From: Escherichia coli
Lineage (GTDB): Bacteria > Pseudomonadota > Gammaproteobacteria > Enterobacterales > Enterobacteriaceae
Direction: 5' to 3' (one strand)
Assembly (NCBI RefSeq): GCF_003334815.1
Contig: NZ_QOWO01000073.1
DNA length: 5,353 nt
Shown here one piece after another: positions 2,197 through 2,715 of the stretch. Both the position numbers and the translations under genes were made by a program. The notes beneath the pieces were generated by a model, which saw only the letters and a list, made by a program, of their open reading frames with translations, did no database searches and was not told the DNA's origin. Position 1 is the stretch's first letter. Every line of letters starts with the position of its first letter.

Positions 2197-2541
2197 TTAT
2201 TTGCTATCGCGAATCCCTAAGCGTTGTAACAATCCGATAATCCCTTCCCGCAGAAGCAAGGATGTAAACTGTTTTTGTTCAACTGGCGTCATCTCTTTCG
2301 CCAGTGTCACCAGCAATACTTCAAGCGGCGCATCACCAGAAAGGGCAGGCGCTTCTCCCTGACCTTCTGGACGTTCAGCATTGCGAATATATTCACGAAC
2401 CTGTTCATTGACGTGAACCAGTCGGGCTTTGCCACCCTGGACGCCAGGTTTTGGTGACGTTGTCCAGCCTTCCTTGCGTACCCATTTATTAATGGTCTGG
2501 CGGCTATAGCCGGTCAGTCTGGCAAGTTCATCTGGTGTCAT
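2197..2541 (-). CDS. yfeC: Small putative DNA-binding protein (DUF1323 / YfeC-YfeD family), 114 aa from second ATG; ORF extends to 2556 (119 aa)
   Basis: Minus-strand ORF, paralogous to yfeD over its full length. The second in-frame ATG (2539..2541) is preceded by AAGGAG at good spacing, whereas the first ATG (2554..2556) has only a weak AGGGA; the 114-aa length also matches my recollection of YfeC. Function unknown. Confidence 0.8.
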   Translation of the reverse strand: MTPDELARLTGYSRQTINKWVRKEGWTTSPKPGVQGGKARLVHVNEQVREYIRNAERPEGQGEAPALSGDAPLEVLLVTLAKEMTPVEQKQFTSLLLREGIIGLLQRLGIRDSK

Positions 2542-2715
2542 CCTCTCCTTGAACATAACAATTCCCTGAATGTATGTGGGTCTATTAGTAGTTCATTTTA
2601 TAACACCACTTTACAGGAAACCGTGACATGAATAACTACTGAATGCGAGCGGTTTTCCAAAATTGTTCATTTGCCTGATTTTTCAGCGATTGAAACTACA
2701 CGTTGCAATTTGCCG

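Follow-up and report, generated by a model that had tools for sequence, protein, structure and literature searches.

The 5′ end of yfeC in Escherichia coli offers two ATG codons in the same reading frame, and the question is which of them starts the protein. The window, by which we mean the whole stretch of 5,353 nt that was analysed, is an E. coli chromosomal segment with gltX (336..1751, plus strand), yfeD, yfeC, one tRNA-Ala(GGC) gene (2777..2852, plus strand) and pdeA (plus strand). The original prediction placed the two yfeC ATGs 15 nt apart in one frame, which the window sequence confirms, and leaned towards the downstream one. The upstream codon (ATG1) occupies 2554..2556 and the downstream codon (ATG2) 2539..2541, both on the minus strand.

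The tRNA-Ala(GGC) gene is present as a single copy in the window, whereas K-12 carries two tandem copies (alaX and alaW). The flanks at 2740..3010 span 271 nt here, compared with 386 nt, in two pieces, in the best-matching E. coli genomes. It looks as though one copy (about 115 nt) was lost through repeat recombination or collapsed in the assembly.

Two ATGs and two annotations

Read on the minus strand, to which all yfeC features given here belong, the gene begins ...TTCAGGGAATTGTT ATG TTC AAG GAG AGG ATG ACA CCA GAT GAA... An in-frame stop lies at 2595..2593, and ATG1 is the first start codon past that stop. A start at ATG1 gives the product MFKERMTPDEL... of 119 aa, encoded at 2197..2556 (119 codons, with the TAA at 2199..2197), a YfeC-like (PF07037) winged-helix regulator. 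In this protein ATG2 is Met6, and codons 2–5 (TTC AAG GAG AGG, 2542..2553) encode a tail, Phe-Lys-Glu-Arg, ahead of the winged-helix domain. The Lys3–Glu4 codons of the tail form the Shine–Dalgarno (SD)-like hexamer AAGGAG (2545..2550), which ends 3 nt 5′ of ATG2 and is overlapped by the motif TCAAGGA (2552..2546) inside codons 2–4. Further 5′, the pentamer AGGGA (2563..2567), the candidate SD element of ATG1, lies within the conserved leader block TTCAGGGAA (2570..2562).

An extended -10-like promoter element, TGTTATAAA (2597..2605), may be present about 46 nt 5′ of ATG1. Its TG-N-TATAA pattern is conserved across 80 related loci (L004–L083), and the element was not detected by a strict two-hexamer promoter scan. 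In the same loci, a conserved CTAAT(T)A leader block follows the putative element. A -10 at this position would put the transcript start roughly 35–40 nt 5′ of ATG1, so that both ATGs would lie on the mRNA. Ten nucleotides past ATG2 opens an out-of-frame mini-ORF of five codons, ATG AAC TTG CCA GAC TGA (MNLPD and stop, 2514..2531). It is probably incidental; its ATG needs GAT as codon 9 and is therefore absent in most other genera.

That annotation could choose either ATG had been anticipated, and both choices are indeed in use. The curated K-12 record NC_000913.3 starts yfeC at ATG2 (345 bp, 114 aa), whereas PGAP RefSeq records, including that of another MG1655 assembly, start it at ATG1 (360 bp, 119 aa; WP_000472021.1). 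The K-12 annotation is also inconsistent between paralogues, taking the upstream ATG for yfeD and the downstream one for yfeC. The 114-aa length recurs in the ChIP-exo study that characterises YfeC as a DNA-binding dual regulator (PMC8464067), a study in which the tag was C-terminal and which therefore has no bearing on the start site. The PF07037 profile matches YfeC with E=4.5e-51, residues 6–118 covering model positions 1–122 of 122. Because the model starts at the inner Met (residue 6), it is silent on residues 1–5, and its boundary may follow the annotated K-12 start. Published work and RefSeq already contain both the ambiguity and the upstream start, and the case is an ordinary annotation issue.

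Ribosome positioning at the two ATGs

Every register in which the 16S 3′ tail (ACCUCCUUA) can pair along the 5′ end was scanned, and the spacing penalty of the Salis 2009 RBS model was added. For ATG1, AGGGA adopts the AAGGA register, which includes one G-U pair and yields -5.1 kcal/mol, at an aligned spacing of 3 and a DtoStart of 12, giving -3.6 for energy plus penalty. For ATG2, AAGGAG pairs at -8.5 kcal/mol at an aligned spacing of 1 and a DtoStart of 10; the penalty of about 12 brings the sum to about +3.5. The sole register of ATG2 at usable spacing is a 3-bp pairing with AGG (-2.6 kcal/mol, aligned spacing 4, DtoStart 13), for which energy plus penalty is -2.6. Taking a canonical SD to match the anti-SD over 4 nt or more and to have a DtoStart of about 12–16 and an aligned spacing of about 3–7, the element of ATG1 is one, while AAGGAG at an aligned spacing of 1 falls outside these ranges for ATG2.

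The contrast drawn beforehand between a strong AAGGAG and a weak AGGGA agrees with the pairing energies; AGGGA sits at a workable distance (6-nt spacer). The accompanying statement that AAGGAG stands at proper spacing does not hold, because just three bases (AGG) intervene, a DtoStart of 10 against an optimum of about 13–14. With AAGGAG too near ATG2 and AGGGA workable for ATG1, the geometry runs opposite to the lean towards ATG2. More generally, a strong-looking SD does not settle a start codon, because the distance to the codon outweighs the strength of pairing.

These distances can be read against published reporter and toeprint experiments (PMC9841429), which found that native E. coli RBSs cluster at a DtoStart of 13–14, that a distinct AUG at 12 still works and that an AUG at 10 or 11 goes unused. 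The study gives nagZ (UAAGGAG, 4-nt spacer) and secF (AGGAG, 4-nt spacer) as native examples, and its conclusion is that the combination of a strong SD and short aligned spacing physically holds the codon outside the P site. The yfeC arrangement is alike in that two AUGs are available and the choice between them would fall to the P site set by the SD (PMC9841429; Chen et al, 1994, cited there), and in that a strong SD too near an AUG excludes that AUG, as we propose for ATG2. It differs in that the two yfeC AUGs lie 15 nt apart, each with an SD-like element of its own, whereas the cases in that study are overlapping AUGUG sequences sharing one SD.

Direct evidence comes from tetracycline-inhibited ribosome profiling (TetRP), by which initiating ribosomes were mapped in E. 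coli K-12 BW25113 with reads assigned by their 3′ ends (PMC4909307; Nakahigashi et al, 2016). yfeC itself is on the list of remapped genes in that study (Table S2, row 116), where it is given a new ATG start shifted by -15 and the product MFKERMTPDEL... Across the three samples, the normalised signal was 0, 16.1 and 14.3 at ATG1, compared with 0, 0 and 3.2 at ATG2, the start annotated at the time. After manual inspection the gene was put in class “1. new site”, which corresponds to 39 of the 67 closely inspected genes and denotes a clear signal mainly at the new site with the start unchanged in the 2014 K-12 record; yfeC is outside the 22 genes with signal at both sites. The authors' comment on the gene reads “ATG+10 also has signal”. 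The row carries no N-terminal peptide, and yfeC, with its low read depth, differs from the genes confirmed by lacZ fusion in lying outside that set (PMC4909307). Given this depth (zero in one of three samples, one growth condition), we regard the TetRP signal as direct but moderate evidence for ATG1. An entry for yfeC was not found in the initiation or N-terminomics supplements of TRAINSPOTTER 2026, Fijalkowski 2024, Giess 2017 and Stringer 2021. An N-terminal peptide starting MFKER had been named in advance as the observation that would point to the upstream ATG. TetRP largely supplies that answer by mapping initiation mainly to the -15 ATG, although the peptide itself is not recorded.

Conservation of the N-terminal tail

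To the window sequence we added 80 Enterobacteriaceae loci from a scan of one genome per species, 81 sequences in all. The loci were seeded with M[FIL]KERMTP and SRQTINKW; because the first seed requires an ATG1-type peptide, the 80 loci are biased towards ATG1, a bias that the second seed does not share. The second seed and independent representatives at 50% identity lessen this bias, but not fully. ATG1 is ATG in 80 of the 81 sequences and GTG in the remaining one, and ATG2 is ATG in all 81. Not one indel separates the two codons in any sequence, whereas the 5′ UTR has indels, and the codons follow the pattern ATG-[T/A/C]TC-AAG-GA[G/A]-[A/C]G[G/A/T]-ATG. Glu4 (GAG/GAA) and Arg5 (AGG/CGG/CGA/AGA/CGT) are kept through synonymous changes. 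Parsimony on a neighbour-joining tree from the rest of the gene counts 11 synonymous versus two non-synonymous events in the last 4 nt before ATG2, an excess whose p value is about 0.001 by a hand binomial estimate that takes about 39% synonymous as the neutral expectation. On sequence evidence, the changes between the ATGs carry a coding-like signature, and the retention of both ATGs and of the frame in 81 sequences exceeds chance. The GG at -9/-8 of ATG1 is likewise invariant in 81/81 despite a 1-nt indel and substitutions in its flanks, and such a position-fixed GG behaves as would be expected of an SD serving ATG1.

Variation within the species was considered as a discriminator between the starts and rejected. 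All 5,426 E. coli genomes keep the region at at least 97% identity, and the two variants examined differ at the third base of Thr7 (synonymous), at another downstream synonymous site and at one 5′ UTR base, so that in both the changes lie outside the 15 nt.

The heptamer TCAAGGA is invariant in 81/81, two synonymous sites included. Each of these sites shows 0 parsimony changes, compared with 8–28 (mean 14.5) at downstream degenerate third positions, while the yfeD tail codons of the same species have 4–15 third-position changes. A general start-proximal constraint was considered as the cause of the low synonymous variation in codons 2–5, and is not a full explanation because yfeD tails vary freely. 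The invariance at synonymous sites points to selection on the nucleotide sequence. A role as SD for ATG2 would account for AAGGA and leave the invariant C unexplained, and the spacing speaks against efficient use there. TCAAGGA could signal a minor second start, be recognised by an RNA-binding protein or serve as a DNA operator; with two frozen synonymous sites, ATG2 may see some minor use, or the motif may have a different role at the RNA level.

TCAAGGA also repeats a leader motif 17 nt upstream (TTCAGGGAA / TTCAAGGAG), so that two CA-R-GGA motifs 17 nt apart flank ATG1. Leaders controlled by CsrA are marked by at least two GGA motifs, one of them overlapping the SD, and by CsrA binding in CLIP or gel-shift assays. 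TCAAGGA and TTCAGGGAA might form a two-site RNA element that brackets ATG1 and serves as a target for CsrA or another regulator that recognises GGA, or the motif might act as a decoy or second SD setting the ratio of full-length to truncated YfeC; we put this forward as speculation and consider it very improbable. Were the decoy or second SD real, the truncated YfeC would lack the first strand of the DNA-binding domain. A search of main texts found no support for a link between yfeC and CsrA. RNAalifold on 30 species returned no conserved RNA structure around both ATGs (three pairs, no covariation), and a hairpin of the E. coli sequence, in which ATG1 and ATG2 are paired and AAGGA lies in the loop, was discarded as not conserved.

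The paralogue yfeD (1803..2195, minus strand) has a two-ATG layout of its own, with an upstream ATG at 2195..2193 and an inner ATG at 2174..2172. Its product MKRLRNK-MTTEEL... has 130 aa in the K-12 annotation, from the upstream ATG. The ATG2 product had been said to align flush with the conserved N-terminus of YfeD (MTPDEL versus MTTEEL); the two segments do align, but the Met of MTTEEL is the eighth residue in the yfeD ORF and in the K-12 annotation, so that the residue matched flush is an internal one. Both proteins belong to PF07037, and yfeD resembles yfeC in having an upstream ATG and a Lys/Arg-rich tail of 6–7 residues before M-T-T-E-E-L (MK[RK]LR[SN]K-MTTEEL across loci L004–L083). It differs from yfeC in that no SD-like sequence precedes its inner ATG and the synonymous sites of its tail codons are free to vary. 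The upstream ATG of yfeD lies 1 nt past the yfeC stop (TAAtATG), a junction that suggests translational coupling of yfeD to yfeC.

The family was also sampled by representatives at 50% identity for which the DNA was retrieved. Every full-length relative examined has a tail of 5–8 residues before M-T-(P/T)-x-E-L, mostly a hydrophobic residue followed by Lys/Arg in different codons, and in a few cases N-[DE]-E-W. In a relative that adjoins gltX as yfeC does (L084), the gene reads GTG AAA AAT GAA TGG GTA ACA, with Val (GTA) at the Met position; in another (L085) this position is Ile (ATC), preceded by catcagggaagt ATG ATG; and in the yfeD of Enterobacter sp. ENT03 (L038) the inner Met is replaced by Leu (TTA). 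With GTA, ATC and TTA as inner codons, the upstream start alone is possible in these genes. In two further relatives (L086 and L087) gene callers took the inner Met, and starting from the in-frame ATG that lies seven codons further upstream yields a similar tail (MIIFKHQ and MNTLPSK). As the inner Met is replaced in some relatives and is retained in paralogues without an SD-like sequence before it, we take it as a conserved domain residue and not as evidence for a start. In Atlantibacter and relatives (L059, L065, L070 and L079), the gene downstream of yfeC begins MMIFKPR-MTPAELAELTGY; it is nearer to YfeC than to YfeD and keeps the F-K-x-R-M-T-P tail through different codons (AAA CCA AGG).

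A structural reason for retaining Met6 is suggested by comparison with phage Mu. The family profile matches the N-terminal winged helix-turn-helix (HTH) domain of MuA (1tns) with E=4.2e-5 over MuA residues 4–46, including the GVKGGKA wing motif, and the Mu repressor (1g4d) weakly (E=0.011), while YfeC as a single sequence matches 1tns with E=0.01; the profile thereby places the family in a sequence relationship with Mu-type winged HTH domains. The MuA domain reportedly packs a three-helix bundle against a sheet of three strands, the first of them N-terminal (Clubb and co-workers, 1994). Arg5 and Met6 of YfeC align with Trp4 and Val5 of MuA, which has four residues (MELW) before the position aligned with Met6. 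An AlphaFold model from a 41-sequence alignment (mean pLDDT 79; 82 for residues 1–10) predicts strand or bridge at residues 5–6, 33–35 and 45–48 and helices at 8–15, 19–29 and 51–60. Foldseek against the PDB returned generic MarR-type winged-helix matches only (E>0.01), which we did not use as evidence. On this model, Met6 would be a hydrophobic residue of the first β-strand of a Mu-type winged-helix domain, and the strand would need residues upstream of Thr7, so that it would be lost if translation began at ATG2 and the Met were then removed. The similarity to the Mu domains is distant, and YfeC differs from the Mu proteins in being a small regulator encoded on the chromosome, with a helical region at its C-terminus, and neither a transposase nor a phage repressor.

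Choice of start codon

We favour ATG1 as the principal start of yfeC, giving a 119-residue protein that begins MFKER, with a probability of about 0.68. The modest SD AGGGA (GGA at -9..-7), at a workable distance, would bring ATG1 into the ribosomal P site, and translation would proceed mainly from there to yield the 119-aa YfeC. ATG2 would then supply Met6, a residue of the first strand, and would not be the main start; AAGGAG would be the Lys3–Glu4 codon pair, an SD look-alike too close for efficient initiation at ATG2. Residues 2–6 would have a structural role and the use of ATG2 would be minor.

The lean towards ATG2 is not supported by the analysis: its SD is too near, the YfeD Met aligned with it is internal, and the TetRP signal sits at ATG1. 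If ATG2 were nevertheless the sole or principal start, the 15 nt upstream would be 5′ UTR containing its SD and ATG1 an incidental triplet, a reading that could draw on the strong pairing of AAGGAG with the anti-SD (-8.5 kcal/mol), on the 114-aa annotation in NC_000913.3, on the PF07037 model beginning at that Met, and on a product that lines up with the MT(P/T)xEL motif conserved in the family. The Pfam boundary may, however, just follow the annotated K-12 start, and in relatives the Met position is occupied by Val, Ile or Leu. Moreover, an incidental ATG1 would sit poorly with the coding-like conservation of ATG1, the frame and the Glu-Arg codons across the 81 sequences and with an SD core for ATG1 that is invariant in position. 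Together with the short SD spacing and the ribosome signal, these observations make ATG2 as the main start quite improbable.

Programmed dual initiation, in which both ATGs would be meaningfully used to give the 119-aa form and a 114/113-aa form devoid of the tail and the first strand, with the frozen AAGGA as the SD for ATG2, we consider unlikely. It would account for the frozen TCAAGGA with its two synonymous sites and for an ATG2 that is invariant in all orthologues, and it would agree with the small signal at the annotated site in one TetRP sample (3.2 vs 14.3) and with the many dual-start genes reported in that study (PMC4909307). The same study, however, classed yfeC as “1. new site” and not with the 22 both-site genes, and the DtoStart of 10 at ATG2 is below the range in which an AUG is used (PMC9841429). 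A ribosome on ATG1 would also cover ATG2, SD pairing leaves the invariant C of TCAAGGA unexplained, and paralogues conserve the inner Met without an SD.

With ATG1 as the principal start, the practical consequence is small, and no open biological question hangs on the start of yfeC. The curated K-12 YfeC of 114 aa probably lacks the first five residues of the protein, and the PF07037 model probably begins a few residues late. For expression, N-terminal tagging or modelling of YfeC, the 119-aa form should be used, or both forms tested.
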